Shown in pieces: positions 130 to 18,733 of a DNA stretch of 18,880 nt. Both the position numbers and the translations under genes were made by a program. Every line of letters starts with the position of its first letter. Position 1 is the stretch's first letter. The DNA is from a virus. Its lineage: Duplodnaviria > Heunggongvirae > Uroviricota > Caudoviricetes. The stretch lies in the IMG/VR virus record IMGVR_UViG_2740892422_000003, positions 1-18,880 of that record. One strand, written 5' to 3'. Under the pieces are notes generated by a model. The model had not been told where the DNA came from, searched no databases, and saw only the letters and a program-made list of their open reading frames with translations.

Positions 130-1143
130 CTAACACTCTGCATGGACATTTTGTGGATCTTTTTTGCTGATTTTTAACTTAATGAACTGAGGAACGCTTG
201 CGTCAATTGTAGTGTGATATTGAAATAAGGGGGATTTTCTATCACGATTATTGATTGAATAACTTATTATATCCTTCATAAGTAGCACAAAGTCAGTGGT
301 GAAATTATATTCAAGTATCTCAACCATTTTTAAATGAAAGTGCCAGTATGATTGTAGATATTTTTTTATATCCAATTCATCCGAAAATTTTGTTTTTAAG
401 AATAAAATATATTCATCTTCACCGTGGGTTGAGCACTGATAGAGTTTTTCAATATCTAAACGCTTTAGTCCATAAAGGTTGTGCAATAATTCTAATAGTT
501 TTTCAATGCTATGTATATGGGTGTATAACTCTGTATAGTCATTAATTTCTTCTTTTTTAAATAGTTCAACTAGTTGGCACCAAATTAATTCTGCATTTTG
601 TATGTAGTCCTTGGAAGCATCAAAATTATTATTAGTAGTTGAAGCATAAGGATAGCATTTACGATATGTAGAATAACAATTTTCAAATTCTAATTTTGCG
701 TTCTTTTTTATCAAAGGAATGTCTAAAGATTCAAGATGTTGTAATGCTTCTATAGTGTTTTTTCTATGGGTATAGAAAAAATCCACTTTGTTTTTCTTTT
801 CTGCTTCTTTGATTTGTTTATCTGTTTGTATTGTTCGATGAATATTATTGACAACTACTCCCAGTGGAATCGATAAAGATAAAACAGCTAAAGGAAGTTT
901 ACTAATGTTTAGGAAATTATTAAATCCTTCCGTATCGATTTGAACATTGTGACCATTCCATGCAACAAATCCGAGCAGAAAAAAACTAATTATTGGAATT
1001 GCCAGTGCGGCTTTGAATAATGGTTGATGCGTAAGAGGTTCAGCATTCATCTTGAATGCATTTATCTTGAATAAATAACCCATGTAAACAACCACAAATA
1101 AAATGTTAAATAAAACGATGCATTGATTGATTGTAAGGTTCAT
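130..1143 (-). CDS. Hypothetical membrane-anchored protein (337 aa), low-GC cargo gene directly downstream of the integrase
   Basis: Long ORF with hydrophobic N-terminal segments (CIVLFNILFVVVYMGYLF, LFKAALAIPIISFFLLGFVAW, LPLAVLSLSIPLGVVV) followed by a roughly 250-aa soluble domain rich in K/E/Y/N. Same strand as int with a 6-nt gap. Much more AT-rich than the phage core. No family recognised. Confidence 0.7.
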   Translation of the reverse strand: MNLTINQCIVLFNILFVVVYMGYLFKINAFKMNAEPLTHQPLFKAALAIPIISFFLLGFVAWNGHNVQIDTEGFNNFLNISKLPLAVLSLSIPLGVVVNNIHRTIQTDKQIKEAEKKNKVDFFYTHRKNTIEALQHLESLDIPLIKKNAKLEFENCYSTYRKCYPYASTTNNNFDASKDYIQNAELIWCQLVELFKKEEINDYTELYTHIHSIEKLLELLHNLYGLKRLDIEKLYQCSTHGEDEYILFLKTKFSDELDIKKYLQSYWHFHLKMVEILEYNFTTDFVLLMKDIISYSINNRDRKSPLFQYHTTIDASVPQFIKLKISKKDPQNVHAEC

Positions 1144-2889: not shown

Positions 2890-3078
2890 ATGCAAACTAA
2901 AGCTGCAACACATTCAGAAAGCAGGTGGGTACCTCTGAAAACGTTTTGCGACAGGGTTGAAATAAAACTGCGCACGGGACGTTACTGGGTACACACTGGC
3001 AAACTCAAAATCAAACCTAAAAGCAAACCGAAAGAACATGTGTTTGTAGATTGGCTTGCGTGGAACAGTGAAAAGTAA
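2890..3078 (+). CDS. Small basic DNA-binding protein, Cro/Apl/Cox-like (62 aa)
   Basis: First gene of the rightward early operon, divergent from cI. Small and basic (KLKIKPKSKPKEH). The call rests on synteny with 186 apl and P2 cox, not on recognised sequence similarity. Confidence 0.5.
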   Translation: MQTKAATHSESRWVPLKTFCDRVEIKLRTGRYWVHTGKLKIKPKSKPKEHVFVDWLAWNSEK

Positions 3079-3121
3079 TCATCACTTTTAGTGATTTTGA
3101 GATTGGGATGGAAGAAAAACA

Positions 3122-3625
3122 ATGTTTGATTACCAGACCTCTAAACATGCGCACTTTGATGCGGCTTGCCGAGCATTTGCAATTGAGCACAATCTTGAAG
3201 ATGTGGCCGCTGCCGTTGGTATGAGGCCGCAGATCCTGCGCAACAAACTGAACCCAGCACAACCGCACCGCCTGACCTGTGATGAGCTTTTGGCTATCAC
3301 GGATTACACCGAAGATGCGCGTTTGCTTGATGGAATGTTAGGTCAGATTAACTGCCTTCCATCCGTGCCGGTGAACAATGCCACAGAAGGCAACATGCAG
3401 TTGTGCGCACTGAGTGCCACAGCCTGTGTGGGCGCGATTGCTGGGGAAGCCGTATCAACTGGCCATATGACTGCCGCCCGCCGTACTCAAATTCTGGATC
3501 GTGCCCGCGATGCAATCCGTAGCTTATCCGTGCTGGCTTATACCGTTGAAAGCCGTATTCACTCTGCGCCTGTTCTGGCCGCTGCGGTGGATCTGGCCAC
3601 AACCAACGCCACCGGCCTGATGTGA
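3122..3625 (+). CDS. cII: CII-like phage regulatory protein (phage 186 CII family)
   Basis: 167 aa, beginning MFDYQTSKHAHFDAACRAFAIEHNLEDVAAAVGMRPQILRNKLNP, with a predicted HTH. Same position and size as 186 CII. Confidence 0.75.
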   Translation: MFDYQTSKHAHFDAACRAFAIEHNLEDVAAAVGMRPQILRNKLNPAQPHRLTCDELLAITDYTEDARLLDGMLGQINCLPSVPVNNATEGNMQLCALSATACVGAIAGEAVSTGHMTAARRTQILDRARDAIRSLSVLAYTVESRIHSAPVLAAAVDLATTNATGLM

Positions 3626-3634
3626 GGGAACACC

Positions 3635-3808
3635 ATGAAAGCGTTTGTCACTTACCTGAAAAAAGAATCACCAGACATGCAGTTGCCGAGTGGTTCAACG
3701 GGATGGATAGAACTTCCGAACGGTCAGCGCTGGAACCCTGGCCACATGTACAAATTCAATGGCCAGCAGCCGCGTCGCCCATGGTGGCGTCGTCTGATGG
3801 GGCTATAG
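3635..3808 (+). CDS. Small hypothetical early protein (57 aa), not in the ORF track
   Basis: ATG at 3635 is preceded by GAGGGAA about 7 nt upstream, immediately after the cII stop. Translation is MKAFVTYLKKESPDMQLPSGSTGWIELPNGQRWNPGHMYKFNGQQPRRPWWRRLMGL. The overlapping frame (track ORF 3622..) gives a W/P-rich sequence that looks like out-of-frame noise. Confidence 0.4.
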   Translation: MKAFVTYLKKESPDMQLPSGSTGWIELPNGQRWNPGHMYKFNGQQPRRPWWRRLMGL

Positions 3809-3816
3809 GGGGCGTT

Positions 3817-4245
3817 ATGGCGATTAGCCAGGAACAGCAAAAGCGCGGGTTGGAGCATTGTAAAAGAATGCGTCTTCAGATCAACCCAGCCTACAGCGAT
3901 GCGGGGGACTGGTGGGACAACTTGACACCAGAGTGGCGCGGCGTGGTGCTTCATGCTGCTGCTGTTACTTCAGGTGCCGGGGTATTTAAAGCCCACTTAA
4001 GCAAATGCTGCTGGCAGGAACTTTATGAACGTCTGGGATATCGGGACATGATTCAACTACGACGGGGTATTTCACGGGCGCGCTTAACGTTCGAAGGTTT
4101 CGGCAGTTTACGTGACAGCGATTTTTCAAAGCGCACCGCGAACCGCCCGATCAAAAAGGCACATCCAATTTATAGCAGTAGCGGGGTGCAGATGGTGATC
4201 GCGCCTCATATCGTCCATAAGTTCCAGCAACAGGGGAATCACTAA
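3817..4245 (+). CDS. Hypothetical early protein (142 aa)
   Basis: Internal ATG of the track ORF 3622..4245, preceded by a G-rich RBS-like run. Its stop overlaps the start of the next ORF (ATGA). The start is ambiguous; in-frame ATGs at 3703 and 3781 are alternatives. Confidence 0.5.
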   Translation: MAISQEQQKRGLEHCKRMRLQINPAYSDAGDWWDNLTPEWRGVVLHAAAVTSGAGVFKAHLSKCCWQELYERLGYRDMIQLRRGISRARLTFEGFGSLRDSDFSKRTANRPIKKAHPIYSSSGVQMVIAPHIVHKFQQQGNH

Positions 4246-4646
4246 TGACCATTATTTCCGTTGAGGGTAAATCGTTGGGGGCTGAACTGGCTGTGTGGGG
4301 TGTCCCGCATAATTACGCTGTAGCGTTTGCAGCGAAAAGCACCAGTAAGAATGGCCGCATCGCTTTGCATCCGTTCTTCTTCAATGACACCGAGCACATG
4401 ACGAATCCGCGTCACTGGCTGGCGATCAATGCCGCTTTCTGGTGTTGCGTGTATCGCGAAGCTGAAAGCAAAGAAGCCCAGATAGAAGCGCTGGCGGGGA
4501 TTCGTGCAATTTTCTATACAGCTGGGGCGCTGGGTGTTGGCGAGATAAAAGCGCTGATCCAGGAGTGGTGGCGGACAACCTATGAGCTTCACCTGATTCC
4601 GGCACCGAACTACTCAGCCGCTACAGTACAACCCACTTTTCACTAA
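4245..4646 (+). CDS. Hypothetical early protein (133 aa)
   Basis: ORF translationally coupled to the upstream gene. No family recognised. Confidence 0.6.
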   Translation: MTIISVEGKSLGAELAVWGVPHNYAVAFAAKSTSKNGRIALHPFFFNDTEHMTNPRHWLAINAAFWCCVYREAESKEAQIEALAGIRAIFYTAGALGVGEIKALIQEWWRTTYELHLIPAPNYSAATVQPTFH

Positions 4647-4713
4647 TTAACAGCCTGAATTTTTTGGCCACGGTTCAAGTGGCCGGGGATTCTTTTGCCT
4701 TAAGGAAACCAAA

Positions 4714-4947
4714 ATGCACATGACACGTCAGGATTTACCCGCAACAAAATCAGGCACCGACCTGCTGGCCATGCTCACCAAAGCCACGCAGGAAGGTAAA
4801 GCCGCAGCTGCTGATCTGTGTTCCACACGTCTGGATAAGCTGGCCACCCATGCAGCCAATGAAGGTTTAAGCGCAGCGGAAATCGTTGAGTTAATCCGCG
4901 AAGAAGCCGCAGCGATTTGCAGCAAAGGCGGTGCGGCATGGCAATAA
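4714..4947 (+). CDS. Hypothetical small protein (77 aa), Ala-rich
   Basis: ATG preceded by AAGGAAA. Its 3' end overlaps the dam start. Confidence 0.5.
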   Translation: MHMTRQDLPATKSGTDLLAMLTKATQEGKAAAADLCSTRLDKLATHAANEGLSAAEIVELIREEAAAICSKGGAAWQ

Positions 4948-5798
4948 AAACTCCGCTTAAATGGGTGGGCAGCAAAGCCCGCCTTATGCCTAAGCTGCGT
5001 CCGCACCTTCCTGAAGGTAAACGCCTGGTTGAACCGTTCGCAGGTTCCTGCGCCGTCATGATGAATACGGATTATGACGATTATCTGATCGCAGATGTGA
5101 ATCCTGATCTGGTTAATCTTTATAAGGCGATGGCGTATCACACTGATGTGCTGCTGAATGAGCTGGAGAGCCTGTTTACTGCCGGTTCGTTAGGTGATGA
5201 AGAAAGCCGTGCCGTTTTCTATTACGCCGTGCGTGATGCTTTCAATCTTTCTGGTGGTAAGGCCGGTTCTGAATCTGTTGAAAATGCTGCGCGTTTCCTG
5301 TACCTGAATCGCCACTGTTTCAATGGCCTGTGCCGGTATAACCGCCGAGGCCAGTTCAACGTCCCGTTCGGTAAGTACAAAAAGCCTTATTTCCCCGCTG
5401 ATGAAATCCGCGCTTTTGCTGAAAAAGCGAAACGCGCAACGTTCATTACTGCCCACTATTCAGAAACGCTCGATTTGGTTCGGGACGGGAATGACGTTGT
5501 TTACTGTGATCCACCTTATCTGACTGAAAGCGATAATTTCACCGCTTACTATGGGCTCGGTTTTTCGCACATGGATCAGGGGAGGCTGGCGCGTAAGTTG
5601 CGCCGTCTGGCCAGAAAAGGCGTGCCGGTTGTGGCCTCTAATGCCGATCTGGAAATGGTGCATTACCTGTACGCCGGATTTGAAGCCGTTCGCATTAATG
5701 CCCCGCGTAGTGTTGGTGCCGCAGCTGCAAGCCAGAAAGTTGCTGCAGAGTTAATTCTGAAGTCGCCGCTTGATTCTATAGCGATGGCCTGCGCATGA
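4938..5798 (+). CDS. dam: DNA adenine methyltransferase (Dam-like, GATC N6-adenine MTase family)
   Basis: Motif I LKWVGSK, HLPEGKRLVEPFAGSCAVMMNTDYDDYLIADVNPDLVNLY, FLYLNRHCFNGLCRYNRRGQFNVPFGKYKKPYFP and catalytic DPPY (VVYCDPPYL) align closely with E. coli Dam as I recall it. Start set at the internal ATG (MAIKTPLKW); the track start at 4917 is an alternative. Confidence 0.9.
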   Translation: MAIKTPLKWVGSKARLMPKLRPHLPEGKRLVEPFAGSCAVMMNTDYDDYLIADVNPDLVNLYKAMAYHTDVLLNELESLFTAGSLGDEESRAVFYYAVRDAFNLSGGKAGSESVENAARFLYLNRHCFNGLCRYNRRGQFNVPFGKYKKPYFPADEIRAFAEKAKRATFITAHYSETLDLVRDGNDVVYCDPPYLTESDNFTAYYGLGFSHMDQGRLARKLRRLARKGVPVVASNADLEMVHYLYAGFEAVRINAPRSVGAAAASQKVAAELILKSPLDSIAMACA

Positions 5799-7816
5799 CT
5801 CCTGTCGCAAATGGCCAACATCATGCCGTCGATACCTGGCGGCGTGAAACGTTCGCACCGGGTACGCCTACAGACGCCACGATCACCGAGCGCCGCCTGT
5901 GGGCGGTTAATCCGCAGGATTACGAATGGCGCTCACAGTACCTGCATGAGATACCCGACTGGTTAGCCGGGTATTTTGGCCGTCGTTACGAAAAGCTTTT
6001 TTCTGGCCGTGACGGGCGTCGCCGTGCCAATACATTCCTGCGCAAAACAATCGGTGAGAATGTATTGCCACGTCTGCGCAAAGTGGCTGCGCGTTACTCG
6101 CTGGCCGCTGATGCTGCTGATCTTCCTTTTGGTAAGTCGCTGGAGCGCTTGCCGTCACTAGACCGTCCTGATCTTAAAAAACTGGCTGGCCAGGTATCTG
6201 GTTGGATTTCCCAGTCACTTTATGACTTCACCGAACAGTTTGATTCCGGCACTGACGATGCCAGAGAGCTGCATCGCCGCACCCTGGAATCTTACCGCCA
6301 TCTTTGTGCCTGTTGCCTGATGCTGAATAACCAGCCGCCGTACTGGACTGAACATGAGGCCAATGAAGGTCAACTGGAAATGCGTAAGGCGGAATCCGGG
6401 ATACTGCGCATGATGGCGCCGGAATGGTGGTACCTGCGTCTTAAACGTGCGCGTGATACGAAGCGCGAGCACATGGCCATTGCGGTGGGACAGGTGCAAA
6501 AAGCGGCCAGCGCTTATGTATCCCGCAAAACACTGGGCGAATGGATAGACCAGAAAAAGCGGAATCTGGAGTTCTTTAAAAAGTTTGATCTGCTGAATGA
6601 TGAGGGGCTGCGCATTGCACTGGACAGCCTGGTGCACCGCAGCGTTGCAAATCCGGCGATCCGTCGATGTGAACTAATGGTAAGAATGCGAGGGTTTGAA
6701 GATATGGCCAATGAAGAAGGACTGGCCGGTGAGTTTTACACCATCACCGCGCCATCACGTTTCCACGCAGTGCACAGCAAAGGTGGCTTTGTATCGCAAT
6801 GGGATGGATGTACGCCGCAGGATACCCAGCGCTATTTATGCGGCATATGGGCAAAAGCACGCGCAGCGATCTCGCGTGCGGGTATTCATGTATTTGGGTT
6901 TCGGGTTGTTGAGCCTCACCATGACGGGACACCGCACTGGCATATGTTGCTTTTTATGCGTCCGCATGACGTGGACACGGTACGCGATATTCTTTGCTAT
7001 CACGCCAGAATTACCGATTCTGAAGAACTGCAATCTGAAAAGGCGCTGAAGGCGCGTTTTCATGTTGAAGCGATCGATCCCGCCAAAGGTTCGGCCACGG
7101 GCTACATCGCGAAATACATTTCAAAAAATATTGATGGTTTTGCGCTGGATGGTGAGCAGGACGAAGAAACCGGCGAAAACCTGCGTGATATGGCTAAGTC
7201 CGTTTCCGCGTGGGCTTCACGCTGGCGTATTCGCCAGTTTCAGCAGATTGGTGGTGCGCCGGTAACTGTCTGGCGTGAGCTGCGTCGGTTGCGGGATCAG
7301 GTGCTGACCGATCGCAGAATGGATGCGGTTCTGGCCGCTGCTGATGTCGGTGACTGGGCTGCATATACCCAGGCGCAGGGCGGTGCACTGGTTGCCCGCC
7401 GTGATCTGGTTGTTCGTCTGGCCTATGAAATTACGGAACAGGGCAACGAGTACGCAGAGGACGTACAGCGCGTACAGGGGGTTTATTCTCCTTTAGTTCC
7501 TGATTCAGAAGTTTGCACCCGTCTGGTTAAGTGGCAAAAGGTTGCGAAGTTGGCCGAAGCGCCAGCGGAGGCGGGGTTTTCTGGCGGCAACGCCGCCCCT
7601 TGGAGTTCTGTCAATAACTGTACGGAGGGGGGAGCCCGCAGACGGTTAAAACTGGAATTACGCAGTCGGGGTTTTGAGGGTTCCGATGAAGAAATAGCCA
7701 TTCTCCTGCGGGGTAGTGGTTTGAGATTCGGTCAAGGGGCGCTGATTTACCGTAATGGGCGGCTTAAAGAGACTCAAAACGAGCCATTACAGGAGCTGTG
7801 GCCGGGGTGGGTGTAG
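5795..7816 (+). CDS. Rolling-circle replication initiation protein (P2 gpA / 186 A-like)
   Basis: 673 aa. Contains an HUH-type motif (HHDGTPHWHMLLF) and a downstream tyrosine motif (GYIAKYISKN) typical of P2 A-family nickases. Sits after the early regulatory genes as in P2/186. Start overlaps the dam stop (ATGA). Confidence 0.88.
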   Translation: MTPVANGQHHAVDTWRRETFAPGTPTDATITERRLWAVNPQDYEWRSQYLHEIPDWLAGYFGRRYEKLFSGRDGRRRANTFLRKTIGENVLPRLRKVAARYSLAADAADLPFGKSLERLPSLDRPDLKKLAGQVSGWISQSLYDFTEQFDSGTDDARELHRRTLESYRHLCACCLMLNNQPPYWTEHEANEGQLEMRKAESGILRMMAPEWWYLRLKRARDTKREHMAIAVGQVQKAASAYVSRKTLGEWIDQKKRNLEFFKKFDLLNDEGLRIALDSLVHRSVANPAIRRCELMVRMRGFEDMANEEGLAGEFYTITAPSRFHAVHSKGGFVSQWDGCTPQDTQRYLCGIWAKARAAISRAGIHVFGFRVVEPHHDGTPHWHMLLFMRPHDVDTVRDILCYHARITDSEELQSEKALKARFHVEAIDPAKGSATGYIAKYISKNIDGFALDGEQDEETGENLRDMAKSVSAWASRWRIRQFQQIGGAPVTVWRELRRLRDQVLTDRRMDAVLAAADVGDWAAYTQAQGGALVARRDLVVRLAYEITEQGNEYAEDVQRVQGVYSPLVPDSEVCTRLVKWQKVAKLAEAPAEAGFSGGNAAPWSSVNNCTEGGARRRLKLELRSRGFEGSDEEIAILLRGSGLRFGQGALIYRNGRLKETQNEPLQELWPGWV

Positions 7817-13329: not shown

Positions 13330-15222
13330 ATGGCACTTTCCCCCGCGCAGCGTCACAGCCAGCGCATTGCGATGGAACAAAAGCTGAAACGCAGCCAGGC
13401 ACTGGAAACCACGGAAAGTATGCACCTGCTGATCAGGGCGTTGGAAACAGATGTGGAACACGTTCGAAGTCTGCCTACCATCGCCGATCGCGTCGAGTAT
13501 AAACGCGATGTGCTGTTAATGATGAAACCAGTAAAACGCCTTTACCTTTCAACGGATGAAGTTCACCTGGTGGATGCCAGCCTGGTACTGGAGCTGAACA
13601 GCTGCGGCCGGGGCTTCATCACCGCAGAGACAACAACCGATTACACCGGAAAACTGGTGCGGCTGGATGTGGGGTATACCGATCTGCTTTTGCGCTGGTT
13701 TACGGGGTATGTGGAGCGATCACAGCCCGCAGAAAACGGTTTTCAGCGTCTGTTCATTCGTGAGCTGGCAGGTGTGTTTGAAAGGATGTGGCCGTGTTCG
13801 TTTCAACACCCGACTTTGCGAGAAATTGCGGGCTGGCTGGAAGAAAACAGCGGGATCACAGTCAGTGTGCCTGATGCACAGTACAGCGATACCCCCATCC
13901 CACATTTTACCCATAACGGTACTGGTTATCAGTTGCTGAACAATCTGGGCAGGGCGTTCAGTATCCAGGATTACATCTGGTACCAGTTGCCTGATGGTTC
14001 GCTTTACGTCGGCGGCGCAGAAAAATCATTGTTTGCCGGTCGTCCCGTAGAAATCCCGTCAGAGTTCAGCCAGGGGGCTGCTGGCGGTAACTCTGTGACA
14101 TTACCAGTGATCCAGACTATGCGGCCAGGGGTGGAGATGAACGGTGAACGCGTGACTAAAGTTCACCTGACGAATGACACGATGGCGATCACATGGACGC
14201 CGAGAAACCGCGCAACGGGTAAACCTTTGCAGAAAACACCGGCGCAACGGCAGATTGAAAGCCATTACCCGGAACTGGCATCCGGGCTTCATTTGCCAAA
14301 GATGGCCAGAGTCGTGGCGCATTCAGAGCCAGTAAAAAGCGGTAACTTTGCCGATCCCTTCCGGCCACGTTACGCAGTGGACGTGCAGCTGCTTGACGCA
14401 GACGGAAACCCGGACAATCAGACGCCTGTTTACTCAGCGGTGCCGCTGCCGGTGCCAATGGCCGGGAATGATTCAGGTATGTTTCAGTTCCCGCCAGAAG
14501 GGACGCTGGTTGAGGTTGCATTCACGGGAGGCAGACCGGATAAACCCTTTATCAGGCAGACGCTGCCGGATGGTACCAGCCTGCCGGACGTTAAACCCGG
14601 TGAGCAATTGCAGCAGCAGCGGGAAGAAGTTTCCCAGCGGGTGACTCAGGCAGGAGACTGGGTAAGACAGACCGATCAGACCATCAGTGAAACATCGATG
14701 GTGCGAACGGTAAAGGCCGATACGGAACAGCGCGAACTGGTCAGCCGTGAAACCACGGTGAAAGCCACGGATAAAACTACGGTACTGGGAACCGCCACAC
14801 TGCTGGCCGGAGCTATTCAGCAGGTAAGCGCCGGTGATTATAGCCAGGCGGTGAAAGGTAACAGACTGGCCAGTATTGAAGGAAACGAAGAAACGGACAT
14901 AGCAGGACAGCAGTCCACTAAAGTGGGCGGTGCTGTAGCCGTGGAGGTTGGCGAAAGCCTGACAGAGAAAATTGCCGCACTGCGTAAATCAGTGGCCGCT
15001 GGCGGTCAGCAGGTCATGGGGGCAACTGTCCATATTGGCAGTGAGAGTATCAACGCCCTGACCATGATGCTGGATACCATTGATTTACTGGCAGATCTGG
15101 CGCAGCAATGCGCGAGCCATTCGCACCCCACCGTTGGGACGCCAACCAATGCCGCCGCGTTCACACAGACGGCGACGAAAGCCGGGCAGACCCGGAGCAA
15201 GTACCAGGGGATCATTGCTTAA
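13330..15222 (+). CDS. Chimeric 630-aa protein: small-terminase-like N-terminus (gpM-like) joined to a baseplate central-spike-like C-terminus (gpV/gp5/VgrG-like OB fold plus His-containing apex)
   Basis: Starts 4 nt after the capsid gene stop, with GGAGGG upstream. The N-terminus MALSPAQRHSQRIAMEQ resembles the start of P2 gpM (MTSPAQRH..., from memory). The C-terminal half has an OB-fold spike signature (FQFPPEGTLVEVAFTGGRPDKPFI), a repetitive T/V/K-rich segment (TVKADTEQRELVSRETTVKATDKTTVLGTA) and an HxH element near the end (CASHSHPTVGTP). Confidence 0.6.
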   Translation: MALSPAQRHSQRIAMEQKLKRSQALETTESMHLLIRALETDVEHVRSLPTIADRVEYKRDVLLMMKPVKRLYLSTDEVHLVDASLVLELNSCGRGFITAETTTDYTGKLVRLDVGYTDLLLRWFTGYVERSQPAENGFQRLFIRELAGVFERMWPCSFQHPTLREIAGWLEENSGITVSVPDAQYSDTPIPHFTHNGTGYQLLNNLGRAFSIQDYIWYQLPDGSLYVGGAEKSLFAGRPVEIPSEFSQGAAGGNSVTLPVIQTMRPGVEMNGERVTKVHLTNDTMAITWTPRNRATGKPLQKTPAQRQIESHYPELASGLHLPKMARVVAHSEPVKSGNFADPFRPRYAVDVQLLDADGNPDNQTPVYSAVPLPVPMAGNDSGMFQFPPEGTLVEVAFTGGRPDKPFIRQTLPDGTSLPDVKPGEQLQQQREEVSQRVTQAGDWVRQTDQTISETSMVRTVKADTEQRELVSRETTVKATDKTTVLGTATLLAGAIQQVSAGDYSQAVKGNRLASIEGNEETDIAGQQSTKVGGAVAVEVGESLTEKIAALRKSVAAGGQQVMGATVHIGSESINALTMMLDTIDLLADLAQQCASHSHPTVGTPTNAAAFTQTATKAGQTRSKYQGIIA

Positions 15223-15319: not shown

Positions 15320-15874
15320 TCAAGTAGTGGTAATTGTATGGCTTTTGCGGGTTATATAAACGCTATTGGCGGGTACGTCTCTGTTAACGAATGACATTGC
15401 GCCAATTGTCACGTTATCACCAATGGTTAGATCATCACCGATGATGCACGAATTTGCACCAATCTCCACATTGTCTCCGATCCTGATGGCTTTGATTCCC
15501 TCAACCGTTTTTAATCCAATTGTTGTGTTTTGTCGGATACGCACATTCTTACCAATCACAGCCTGGGGGCAAATGACTATTCCAACGAAATGATAAATTT
15601 TGAATTTTTCCCCTATCTGTGCCCCCAACCCAATATCAGTATTGTATTTTGAAACAAGTCTCCTATGGATTCTTCGCGCCCATTTCACTCTTGCTCTCCC
15701 ACCCTGGCAGTAAAGGCAATTCGCTATTCTCCACCAACACATGAACCTGTATCCGGGCTGTCTCCAGCAACGTAGTATGATTCTTCTCCATGAGAATTTT
15801 TTACTGTTGCTCAGTATGTCCGCGCACAATAACTGCTTCATTTCCTCGTAGTGAGATATTTTGCTGCTGCTCAT
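15320..15874 (-). CDS. Hexapeptide-repeat (left-handed beta-helix) acetyltransferase, WcaB/CysE-like sugar O-acetyltransferase family
   Basis: Tandem hexapeptide repeats (IGKNVRIRQNTTIGLKTVEGIKAIRIGDNVEIGANSCIIGDDLTIGDNVTIGAMSFV) and an N-terminal region similar in pattern to WcaB-type acetyltransferases. Lower GC than the phage core. Start is ambiguous (ATG at 15874 or 15841; the track ORF begins with TTG at 15889). Confidence 0.8.
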   Translation of the reverse strand: MSSSKISHYEEMKQLLCADILSNSKKFSWRRIILRCWRQPGYRFMCWWRIANCLYCQGGRARVKWARRIHRRLVSKYNTDIGLGAQIGEKFKIYHFVGIVICPQAVIGKNVRIRQNTTIGLKTVEGIKAIRIGDNVEIGANSCIIGDDLTIGDNVTIGAMSFVNRDVPANSVYITRKSHTITTT

Positions 15875-16661
15875 AAATTGTCCGTCCAAATAATCCTGAC
15901 GGTTATCGTAACATGGGAATGGTCTGATTTTCTGCTAACAGCACAACACTAGGCTATGTGGTTCGGTCTGATAGTGGGCTTCTTCATCCAAAATGATTTA
16001 GTTGGGTTACCAACACAAATCTATTTCTCACATCGTCATAGGCGTCACCAGACGCATTTTAAACCCTTTAGTAACAAACCCTACCCCGCGCACCAAGTGT
16101 AAAAGATCCGAAGCGTGGCGTGGCGCTGGTAGGGTCATATGATGGCGAAATAAATCTTTCGCAGACAAAAACGGCGCTACACCGCACCCGCCTGCGGTTT
16201 CTGGATCTGGAAATTTTTTCAGTTTTATTTTTCTACAAACCAGACCGCCAGACCGCACCATTACTGGCGGCTTTGCAGATAATCAGAACTGAAATGATTG
16301 AAAAGAATTTCAGTGTTTTTCACTTTCATGGATCTGTGGAGGATCGAATACAAAATGTAACCAGCAGAAAAATAAGGGGAAATAATTTTTTTGTGAGTGG
16401 GAAGGATCGTTTTTGTTTTCTGGTTGTTTTCGTCGTAGAAAAGCCGAGGCCAGATTTAGCAAGGCATAGGGACAATTAGAAGGTTCATAGAAAACTGAAA
16501 AAACTGCATGCATGTCGTGGAAACTAGCGAGCTAACAATTGCATCGAAATCTAATTTTAATCTTGGAACTTGAGAAAACTTTTGTCAAATTAGTTGTCGC
16601 TTTTTAGTTGTGGATATCCTTCCGATGTTTACTTGGCAGAGCTTACATTAAGGCATTCGAT

Positions 16662-17780
16662 ATGACTGAAAAATTCACCGCAATTTTGTTAGATACGAGT
16701 ATCTACGATCAGTACGGATTAAAGCTTGAGAAAGGACTGCTGGGTAAGCTTTCCCAGTTCAGCAGAACCCCGACAACGTTTTTGATACCGGATGTAATTT
16801 ACAATGAAGTTAAAAATCATCTTGAAAGAAAAATCAAGACATCACGTGGCTCCCTTGAGAAAGCTTTCGAAGAAGCTGGCGATCATCTTTTTTTTGATGG
16901 AAGCGAACTAAATGATGCAAGAAAAACATTGATTGAAAGCAGAGAAGTTGAAGGATTAGGAAAGAGCAGATTAGACAGATTTGTTGGCGTAACAGATGCG
17001 AAGGTTCTAACTACAGGGGATTATGTTTCGGTACCTGAACTCCTTGAACGATACTTCTCTTCTGAAGCTCCTTTCGCAGATACAGGTAAGAAAAAAAATG
17101 AGTTTCCCGATGCAATAACATTAATGGCCGTCCAAGCCTGGGCTAAAGAGAATGGTGAAAATGTTCTTGCTGTAGCAAGAGATGACGACTGGCAGAGATT
17201 TTGTATTGATGCTGAGAATTTGCACTATGAACCTGACTTATCAAACGCTTTAGCACACTTCAATGAAGAAACCGCACCTTATGAACTAATTGATAACTTA
17301 CAAAAAGCACTTGCTGAAGGACAAGCCGGTAAATTCTTGCATGATGTTGCTGTACACCTTGAGTCAACCTTTGAAGGATTTGCACCAGAACAAGAGGCAG
17401 ATTCATATTTATACTGGGAGGCTGACGGATGCTCAGGTGGATTTGAAGATTTTGAGTTTACAGATAACCACTTCACTGTCATCGACAAGGATGAAAACTG
17501 GGTTGTTATAGAAGCATTTGCAGACATTTCACTTTACGCAGAAGGTGATTTCTCCCTATCGGTTTACGATTCATTCGACAAAGACCATGCTTACATGGGG
17601 TCAATTACCAAGCGAGCCGAGGAAACATATACATCCAGAATACTTATCACAATCTCCGGAGACTTATCAGGTTCTATAGATGATTTGACCGTTGACGATG
17701 TGGAAGTGATCGAGCGTCCAACGTCGATGGATTTTGGGGAGCTTGAATTAGAGTATGAGCCTGACGAGCAAGACTTGTAA
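16662..17780 (+). CDS. PIN-like domain protein with a strongly acidic C-terminal region (372 aa)
   Basis: Start at the ATG (MTEKFTAILLDTSIYDQYG) preceded by TAAGG. The N-terminus has a PIN-like acidic signature (ILLDTSIY; later EFPDAITLMAV, ARDDDW). The C-terminal roughly 150 aa are very D/E-rich (EADGCSGGFEDFEFTDNHF...DDLTVDDVEVIERPTSMDFGELELEYEPDEQDL). Low GC. Confidence 0.65.
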   Translation: MTEKFTAILLDTSIYDQYGLKLEKGLLGKLSQFSRTPTTFLIPDVIYNEVKNHLERKIKTSRGSLEKAFEEAGDHLFFDGSELNDARKTLIESREVEGLGKSRLDRFVGVTDAKVLTTGDYVSVPELLERYFSSEAPFADTGKKKNEFPDAITLMAVQAWAKENGENVLAVARDDDWQRFCIDAENLHYEPDLSNALAHFNEETAPYELIDNLQKALAEGQAGKFLHDVAVHLESTFEGFAPEQEADSYLYWEADGCSGGFEDFEFTDNHFTVIDKDENWVVIEAFADISLYAEGDFSLSVYDSFDKDHAYMGSITKRAEETYTSRILITISGDLSGSIDDLTVDDVEVIERPTSMDFGELELEYEPDEQDL

Positions 17781-17884
17781 CAACTATGATTAGGCACTAT
17801 CGCTGTCGCCATTTTGTCGCCAACTCGATTGCAGTTTCGTTGTAACTAATTGAATTTAATCTTTTTTATTTTCAGGCAACAAAA

Positions 17885-17915
17885 AACCCATCATCTTTAG
17901 AGCATGATGGGTTTA
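17885..17915. terminator. Bidirectional rho-independent terminator between convergent cargo genes
   Basis: AAAAAA, then stem CCCATCAT, a 9-nt loop, stem ATGATGGG, then TTTA, at about 17881-17915 between the PIN-like gene (ends 17780) and the convergent HEPN-like gene (ends 17924). Confidence 0.6.
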
Positions 17916-17923
17916 TAACTTGC

Positions 17924-18733
17924 TTATTCTTTTTTTTCATCCCACGATTCAAGAATAAACATAGTTAGTGTATGTGCAGCATTGATGGCTAATCGTGCGT
18001 GTCGGGGCTTGAGATTGTAAATTTTTCGTCCTGCGCCATGAGCTGAACTCGCATGAGTTCTTAGCGAGCCGATACCATCGGTGAGAGAATATAAGCCGCT
18101 CAAAATGCGTTTTAAGTCCTCATCTTCTACCGCTTTAGTGTCAAGACCTAAATGTTCACGAACGGTCTTCCACAAGCCCTGCAAATCCTGCTTCGCAGGA
18201 ATCGGTAGGTTTTCATCTGCGATAAAAATTTTAAATGTTGATTCTAATATATTACAGGCTGCTGATACTGCTTCTCTTGGGTCAGTATGCAAGTTTTCTA
18301 AAGCTCTTGCGAATTCCATTTCTACTGCTGGAGTATTACGTTTCTGGATAGCTTCTTTCAAGGAAAGGGATGCTAGTGATGCTCCATCAGTAATGTAACC
18401 GCCAGTCACATAGTTCAGCCCATAACGACCAAGTAGTTCCGGCATTTTTTTAACAAACTCGACTTTCTTTTTTTCCCACTCATAGTATGGATTGGCGGGT
18501 AACTCTGACTCCATATAGGTTTCGATTAAGCGACCAAGTAAAACTAATGGTTCATCAGATTCTTTATTAATACGCCTTAACCATTCGAGAGCTTTAACGT
18601 GCTTAGATCCTTCGGGTGGTTCCCCTGGCGCATCAGCATAGGCAAACAAACTATCCAAACTAGCATGGGTTTCAGTGCTAGCAACGAAGTCAGCTACAAC
18701 AGATATTACAGGTTGAGGTATTGGCCGTCCCAT
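17924..18733 (-). CDS. HEPN-like / abortive-infection (Abi_C-like) protein (269 aa)
   Basis: The C-terminal segment GSLRTHASSAHGAGRK fits the HEPN R-x(4-6)-H motif found in Abi_C-type domains, followed by NAAHTLTMFIL. Low GC. Lies next to the right att repeat. Confidence 0.6.
   Translation of the reverse strand: MGRPIPQPVISVVADFVASTETHASLDSLFAYADAPGEPPEGSKHVKALEWLRRINKESDEPLVLLGRLIETYMESELPANPYYEWEKKKVEFVKKMPELLGRYGLNYVTGGYITDGASLASLSLKEAIQKRNTPAVEMEFARALENLHTDPREAVSAACNILESTFKIFIADENLPIPAKQDLQGLWKTVREHLGLDTKAVEDEDLKRILSGLYSLTDGIGSLRTHASSAHGAGRKIYNLKPRHARLAINAAHTLTMFILESWDEKKE

Follow-up and report, generated by a model that had tools for sequence, protein, structure and literature searches.

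Between the cII-type activator gene and dam of a viral record in IMG/VR (IMGVR_UViG_2740892422_000003, Caudoviricetes) lie four small open reading frames (ORFs) of 57, 142, 133 and 77 aa, at positions 3635-4947 of the 18,880-nucleotide stretch that we analysed and refer to as the window. An initial annotation, made from the letters of the sequence, found none of them recognisable and considered them as possible anti-host or anti-defence factors. Are these ORFs genuine genes and, if so, do they constitute a new anti-host cluster? We conclude that they represent the conserved early-operon core of widespread enterobacterial P2/186-like prophages, which is ordinary for the group rather than a new anti-host cluster. 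All four proteins belong to known or catalogued families and their genes are annotated in public records.

Four genuine genes in a conserved order

Judged by its sequence, the element in the window is a P2/186-type prophage of the Peduoviridae that resembles Quadragintavirus. Positions 3100-5900 share 95% nucleotide identity, and their gene order, with Escherichia phage ESSI2_ev015 (Peduoviridae, Quadragintavirus). On the plus strand the operon runs from a cox/apl-like gene (2890-3078) to the cII-type activator gene that is the left neighbour of the cluster (3122-3625; Pfam PF06892 Phage_CP76, E 1e-46; 45% identity to 186 CII), through ORF1 (3635-3808), ORF2 (3817-4245), ORF3 (4245-4646) and ORF4 (4714-4947), to dam, the right neighbour, which encodes a D12-class N6-adenine methyltransferase (4938-5798; Pfam PF02086, E 1.6e-66). 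It is followed by a gene for an A-type rolling-circle replication endonuclease (5795-7816; phmmer, 1.5e-143 with 186 A and 3.6e-109 with P2 A), the counterpart of which in ESSI2_ev015 is annotated 'nicking at origin of replication'.

As originally described, the four ORFs are early, lie on the plus strand and are densely packed. The cII stop (3625) is separated by 9 nt from the ATG of ORF1 (3635), and the stop of ORF1 (3808) by 8 nt from the ATG of ORF2 (3817); ORF2 and ORF3 overlap in a TAATG (4243-4247), and ORF4 and dam overlap in ATGGCAATAA (dam ATG at 4938, ORF4 stop at 4947). A purine-rich Shine-Dalgarno sequence is found 5-8 nt 5' of every one of the four starts, which bears out the good ribosome-binding site ascribed to the 57-aa ORF; that ORF was missing from the ORF track for no reason other than the size cut-off, and RefSeq annotates its homologues. 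The description of the cluster as mostly translationally coupled is right for the ORF2/ORF3 overlap but fails for ORF3 and ORF4, which are uncoupled and stand on either side of a 67-nt spacer with a terminator-like hairpin. The frame of ORF2 is already open from a GTG at 3622; given that its homologues are 141-146 aa long and begin MAIS..., we place the start at the ATG at 3817 and not at 3818.

All four ORFs are genuine genes under purifying selection. In comparisons with orthologues from five related phages and prophages, substitutions pile up at third codon positions (for example, 6/3/48 over the three codon positions of ORF3 and 2/2/24 over those of ORF1, against related locus L006), and dN/dS is 0.02-0.07 for ORF1, 0.11-0.20 for ORF2, 0-0.07 for ORF3 and 0.05-0.18 for ORF4, similar to the 0.02-0.16 of cII. 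The amino-acid identity to orthologues is 72-88% for ORF2 and 95-100% for cII and ORF3. The initial annotation had left room for frames that are not conserved in related elements; they are conserved, with dN/dS of about 0.02-0.2. The pattern across codon positions agrees with the plus-strand frames, and on that ground the antisense ORFs (3724-3954, 4242-4592 and others) were not accepted as genes.

The block of four ORFs was found in 31 of 5426 complete E. coli genomes, where RefSeq annotates all four, the 57-aa ORF included. The order cII-Fil-ORF2-ORF3-DUF2732 is kept in all 24 related loci, down to approximately 25-50% identity; these comprise 8 annotated loci and 16 IMG/VR viral contigs, the latter retrieved with a degenerate motif of the most distant ORF2-like proteins. 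A search for related loci in genome contigs with P0332 found none. Since the order is fixed in every locus, we regard the four ORFs as an invariant backbone of the clade rather than a variable accessory island; the variable genes of the region sit between DUF2732 and A. Neither gpB of P2 nor dhr of 186 is present in any of the 24 loci.

ORF1 and ORF4 are members of known families

That none of the products would be recognisable proved incorrect, as ORF1 and ORF4 match Pfam families above threshold and ORF2 and ORF3 fall into catalogued PHROGs. ORF1 scores 37.4 bits against PF10893 Phage_186_Fil (cut-off 25; E 2e-9; residues 1-37) and matches phrog_7623 (2e-29) and phrog_816, 'cell division inhibitor' (1e-7); RefSeq names its homologues in E. 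coli prophages 'phage filamentation protein Fil family protein'. The Pfam match covers positions 1-34 of the 56 in the Fil model, so that the similarity to 186 Fil is partial rather than full-length. ORF1 and 186 Fil have in common an N-terminal core, F..L.K.SP....GWI....G.RW.P, and a position directly after cII, which ORF1 occupies in 24 of 24 loci. They differ in length (57 aa for ORF1 and 75 aa for 186 Fil) and at the C-terminus, where ORF1 carries a basic and aromatic RRPWWRRLMGL tail that is conserved in the clade, whereas the family alignment gives 186 Fil a hydrophobic tail. The 186 record states of fil that 'overexpression blocks cell division' and, by homology, abundant ORF1 may likewise block division of the host cell. 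As a Fil homologue, ORF1 makes one host-directed function of the cluster plausible.

ORF4 scores 46.4 bits against PF10809 DUF2732 (cut-off 25; E 4e-12) and belongs to phrog_128 (1e-21). Together with P2 Orf80 and the 186 ORF that follows tR1 it forms one family, each member being the first gene past the terminator. The genomic context differs in that the ORF4 stop overlaps dam, whereas the DUF2732 gene of P2 and of 186 precedes other small ORFs. The 186 member is annotated 'not essential' and, since the stop of ORF4 overlaps the dam start, one may speculate that ORF4 serves mainly to pass ribosomes on to the downstream genes. PDB sequence searches with ORF1 and with ORF4 gave nothing significant, and nothing relevant was found in the literature on DUF2732.

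A terminator divides the cluster

ORF3 and ORF4 are separated by an element (4644-4700, plus strand) with the features of a tR1-type rho-independent terminator, namely a TAATTAA stop cluster at the end of ORF3, a hairpin and the tail GGGGATTCTTTTGCC. A terminator scan placed the hairpin at 4661-4689, followed by TTCTTTT. The predicted fold (-17.2 kcal/mol, z -1.75) is unremarkable in stability alone. The whole spacer, from TAATTAA through the hairpin, GGGGATTCTTTTGCC and the ribosome-binding site to the ATG, aligns with the annotated tR1 of 186 and with the putative terminator of P2. The alignment spans 11 members of the clade, in which the stems vary in sequence yet pair and the 3' tail is conserved, and it ends at the DUF2732 ATG in 13 of 13 sequences. 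On this comparative evidence we assign 4661-4700 as a terminator with homologues in 186 tR1 and in the terminator that follows gene B in P2. Its position between ORF3 and ORF4 divides the cluster into two units, fil-ORF2-ORF3 before it and DUF2732-dam-A after it. According to the 186 record, anti-termination acts on the region's terminators in early lytic development.

ORF2 is probably a divergent, single-domain relative of P2 gpB

ORF2 falls into phrog_33841 (4e-44) and has 104 homologue clusters of 136-146 aa, the named ones all from Enterobacteriaceae and labelled hypothetical. Searched exhaustively by HMMER, 1.84 billion representatives yielded no more than 40 clusters that match the ORF2 profile, among them shorter relatives of 113-158 aa that share W..L....RG.(V/L)LHAAG...W...L.RGIQRL...F....DF. 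The protein is laid out as a helical core (residues ~13-105), a basic linker (~105-117) and a C-terminal helix; an AF2 model has a pLDDT of 68 with helices over residues 5-92. For both ORF2 and ORF3, searches of Pfam at E<=1, of NCBIfam and, beyond their own families, of PHROGs at E<=10 returned noise or nothing, PDB sequence searches with the family profiles gave nothing significant, and neither a helix-turn-helix nor any known family that binds RNA or DNA turned up.

Remote-homology searching, which the initial annotation had suggested, was informative for ORF2, linking it by profiles to the helical domain of P2 gpB. Distant members of the ORF2 family, recovered by the ORF2 profile at library-wide E-values of 2e-8 to 5e-4, match phrog_33841 and, over the same region, phrog_5349 and phrog_14551; residues 11-83 of P2 gpB in turn match phrog_14551 (1e-11), phrog_602 (1e-9) and phrog_5349 (2e-5). 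The chain from ORF2 through its distant relatives and phrog_14551/phrog_5349 to gpB is significant at each step. One ORF2 relative, gp07 of Yersinia phage vB_YenM_324 (hhalign 98%, E 3e-14), was labelled 'replication protein GpB' by its depositor. Direct comparison by hhalign of a broad ORF2 alignment with gpB aligned ORF2 residues 25-102 with gpB residues 28-103 at an E-value of 2.7e-4 and a moderate probability of 42%; in 400 column or block shuffles the real score was never attained, though the best of them came near it. The close ORF2 family taken alone gave no significant match to gpB (hhalign probability 0.8%), and ORF2-like ORFs scored just E 0.1-3 against a gpB HMM built in this analysis. 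PF26815, the Pfam family of gpB, is found in none of the 104 ORF2 homologues among precomputed hits, whereas all gpB homologues have it. ORF2 should not, then, be classed as a member of the gpB family.

The N-terminal half of gpB matches its C-terminal half at 80% probability, an indication at the sequence level that gpB arose by internal duplication, and the motif R-x-phi-phi-phi-H-A-[AG] is common to both halves and to ORF2. P2 gpB, with its 166 aa, thus holds the domain twice; the 142 aa of ORF2 hold it once, supplemented by the basic linker and the C-terminal helix. ORF2 is moreover accompanied by ORF3, which P2 lacks. Both proteins occupy the same slot, after the first small ORF past cox or cII and before the TAATTAA-terminator-DUF2732 junction. 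We believe that ORF2 is probably a single-domain, divergent relative of P2 gpB; whether it would also have a gpB-like role we consider evenly balanced. The link is offered as a modest new annotation, one that the depositor of the Yersinia phage had already hinted at. Nothing relevant was found in the literature on vB_YenM_324 or on P2 early-operon anti-defence.

In P2, gpB is an essential replication protein. The P2 record describes it as 'required for lagging strand synthesis', and the protein reportedly binds the host DnaB helicase, a finding of Odegrip et al. 2000 that PMC11087808 cites.

ORF3 is an uncharacterised helical partner of ORF2

ORF3 falls into phrog_3935 (3e-52). Its 93 homologue clusters range from 131 to 133 aa, mostly 133, and the named ones are again all from Enterobacteriaceae and labelled hypothetical; the family is uncharacterised and confined to enterobacterial P2-like prophages. 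In the confident AF2 model (pLDDT 86.7, pTM 0.82), a brief strand region at the N-terminus leads into a bundle of helices. Aromatic side chains make up most of the invariant positions (W18, Y24, F28, W66, Y70, W108 and W109), to which R71-E72 and H116 are added; in 20 of 21 sequences the protein ends in His, although the tails vary. No specific relative was found in BFVD, and none among PDB sequences or solved structures.

On the strength of a similar AP...P..[FL]H tail and the resemblance of IRAIFYTAG to RRTLFMHAG, ORF3 was considered as the missing second half of gpB, that is, as the product of a split gene. This was rejected, as hhalign gave E-values of 0.07-0.29, and a profile comparison of ORF3 with the ORF2 family was likewise not significant. 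ORF3 follows ORF2 directly in 24 of 24 loci, and such constant coupling leads us to infer that the two act jointly. No relation of ORF3 to gpB, ORF2 or solved structures could be detected, so that any role given to it is a guess.

A replaceable cassette in P2-type early operons

Comparison of the three layouts locates the difference between these phages. P2 has cox-orf78-gpB-terminator-DUF2732, 186 has cII-fil-dhr-tR1-DUF2732, and the clade, the window included, has cII-fil-ORF2-ORF3-terminator-DUF2732. From this alignment of gene orders the slot appears to be a replaceable cassette, filled by gpB, by dhr or by ORF2 and ORF3, with a conserved right boundary. The correspondence that had been drawn with the fil/dhr interval of 186 agrees with the layout in the 186 record. 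Dhr resembles ORF2 and ORF3 in position, between fil and tR1, and in being small, early and possibly active on replication; the 186 record states that dhr 'inhibits host DNA replication'. It is, in contrast, one protein of 66 aa, as opposed to a total of 275 aa for ORF2 and ORF3. Homology to Dhr was rejected for both, Dhr being a member of phrog_6069, which is different from the PHROGs of ORF2 and ORF3, and a phmmer search with Dhr over 1572 ORFs from 25 loci matched 186 itself only. Nothing relevant was found in the literature on 186 Fil or Dhr.

A proposed role for the cluster and its alternatives

We propose, with slightly better than even confidence, that the cluster is the conserved middle of the early operon, made up of fil, a gpB-like, DnaB-directed replication pair, tR1 and the DUF2732-dam-A unit. 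Each biochemical function in this proposal is inferred from sequence. Upon derepression, transcription from the early promoter would pass through cox, cII, ORF1, ORF2 and ORF3 unconditionally and then reach the tR1-type terminator, where read-through would allow expression of DUF2732, Dam and A. A would nick the origin. ORF2, as one copy of the helical domain that P2 gpB has twice, and the always-coupled ORF3 would most likely recruit or hijack host DnaB at the A-nicked origin for lagging-strand synthesis. Capture of DnaB could depress host replication too, which would reconcile the proposal with the presence of dhr in the 186 slot.

In its most specific form, the proposal holds that ORF2 and ORF3 are a two-subunit recruiter or hijacker of DnaB, a third and previously unrecognised solution among P2-type phages, and this we regard as possible but doubtful. 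If it were true, P2 would have a gpB with a duplicated domain, 186 no gpB-like protein, and the clade a single-domain gpB-like protein with a new helical partner that ends in an invariant histidine, and the slot from fil to TAATTAA-tR1 would be a hotspot for the exchange of replication-takeover modules. Proteins of the lambda P type are small and early and capture the host's DnaB to serve the phage origin, a step that can inhibit host replication. Any likeness of ORF2 and ORF3 to lambda P and other phage helicase loaders is by analogy only, as no similarity to any solved helicase loader was detected in sequence or fold; initiation in P2-type phages, moreover, proceeds from a nick by the A protein and not from an origin-binding O/P pair.

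A rather unlikely alternative, though the strongest, is that ORF2 and ORF3 are host-takeover or anti-defence accessories, functional analogues of Dhr that phage replication can dispense with. This would fit the presence of dhr in their slot in 186, the exchange of slot contents across the family, the faster evolution of ORF2 relative to its neighbours (72-88% identity; dN/dS 0.11-0.20), the weak direct similarity between ORF2 and gpB and the orphan fold of ORF3. However, typical anti-defence islands vary in presence and absence, whereas no such variation was seen within the clade (24 of 24 loci); it is further downstream, between DUF2732 and A, that gene content truly varies; no PADLOC model was matched by any of the four at E <= 1; and the chain of significant matches joins ORF2 to gpB. 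The location of ORF2 in the gpB slot, combined with its remote kinship to gpB, itself argues against an anti-defence reading. Of the anti-host and anti-defence roles originally suggested for the cluster, one is plausible for ORF1 as a Fil homologue; for ORF2 and ORF3 an anti-host role is less likely than a replicative one. Accessory and replicative roles do overlap, since a protein that binds DnaB would affect host replication as well.

That ORF2 and ORF3 regulate the early operon, for example as factors for read-through of the tR1-type terminator or as modulators of the level of cII or A, is improbable. They lie directly 5' of the conserved terminator, the 186 record gives anti-termination of the region's terminators in early lytic development, and the basic linker of ORF2 (~105-117) might bind nucleic acid, but the same terminator is present in P2 and 186, which lack ORF2 and ORF3, no helix-turn-helix or known nucleic acid-binding family was detected, and regulation would leave the homology chain to gpB unexplained. 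Finally, that chance open frames account for some of the ORFs, as their small size and the lack of a Pfam family for ORF2 and ORF3 might suggest, is already refuted by the comparative data, namely conserved lengths with some 100 homologue clusters for each of ORF2 and ORF3, third-position-dominated substitutions with low dN/dS, a constant order in 24 loci to ~25-50% identity and a confident AF2 model of ORF3.

Implications of the gpB link

The replicative proposal would move phrog_33841, a hypothetical family of ~100 clusters, to the lineage of gpB replication proteins, an assignment that can be tested. By-products of the comparison are the apparent internal duplication of gpB and the delimitation of the slot as a replaceable cassette whose right boundary is conserved. 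186 replication is reported to be dnaC-dependent. If ORF2 and ORF3 were to load or capture DnaB, phages of the present clade would be predicted to be independent of DnaC and would add a case to a pattern now emerging, in which phage genes often take the place of helicase loaders; PMC11087808 describes such replacement by non-homologous genes.

State of the prophage

The prophage in the window is defective. In the ORF at 13330-15222, some 63 N-terminal residues from the small terminase subunit are fused to a baseplate protein, and this fusion matches a deletion of ~13 kb, comprising 19 late genes, relative to ESSI2_ev015.

The right-hand boundary of the early cassette

In the window, 186 and P2, the interval before the tR1-type terminator is occupied by different genes, namely ORF2 and ORF3, dhr and gpB, respectively. 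In each of the three the slot gene ends in TAATTAA (window 4644-4650, with equivalent sites in 186 and P2, where the form is TAAGTAATTAA), which provides stops in more than one frame, and the conserved terminator is located 3' of this motif. From the sequences compared, TAATTAA and the terminator seem to mark where, on the right-hand side, a cassette with a fixed boundary stops; its content is gpB, dhr or ORF2 and ORF3, depending on the phage.

In the ORF3 family histidine is the very last residue in 20 of the 21 sequences, although tail lengths vary (last codon of ORF3, window 4641-4643). Most members of the ORF2 family likewise end in histidine (...GNH, ...RNH, ...VEH; last codon of ORF2, window 4240-4242), as does the consensus of P2 gpB (...EQYLH). 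The latter protein (L005 1959-2459, gene B of P2) appears to be an internal duplication: when the N-terminal and C-terminal halves of the gpB family alignment were compared with each other by hhalign, they matched at 80% probability (E 1.4e-5), and the pattern R-x-phi-phi-phi-H-A-[AG] is present in both halves.

Neighbouring early genes

When aligned, P2 Orf78 (L005 1792-1962) and the Fil family, to which ORF1 belongs, have an N-terminal 'LL...SP....HG' pattern in common. A Pfam search of Orf78 for Fil returned no match; Orf78 may be a very distant Fil relative at the same position. In Cronobacter phage ESSI-2 (NC_047854, 2397-3702), the Fil and DUF2732 genes are missing from the public annotation, and the ORF2/ORF3 region is spanned by overlapping CDSs, one of them antisense, which are probably spurious.

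The truly variable segment of the early operon lies downstream of the four-ORF cluster, between DUF2732 and gene A. It holds dam only in the window (4938-5798), an exonuclease, an RNA-binding protein and dam in ESSI2_ev015 (L001 5828-7594), Zn-finger/exonuclease/DUF5405/PAPS-reductase in 186 (L002 4667-6748) and no gene in one E. coli prophage (L008 2849-2883).

Late genes and the ends of the window

A 630-aa ORF on the plus strand (13330-15222) is an in-frame fusion of two late genes, in which the N-terminus of gpM, the small terminase subunit, supplies residues 3-63 and a baseplate protein supplies residues 65-630. Since these two genes are separated by ~13 kb and 19 late genes in the close intact relative ESSI2_ev015, the window prophage is defective, having lost genes for head completion, tail, lysis and fibres.

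Adjoining the integrase is a 337-aa ORF (130-1143, minus strand), for which no Pfam family was found and whose sole match was phrog_17460 (unknown function); in 186 this position, a typical moron site, is occupied by orf69. At the right end (15320-18733), the phage backbone is supplemented by three cargo-like or defence-like genes. They encode a hexapeptide acetyltransferase at 15320-15889 (minus strand), a PIN_12-domain protein of 390 aa at 16608-17780 (plus strand) and, at 17924-18733 (minus strand), an Abi_C (abortive infection C-terminus) protein of 269 aa.
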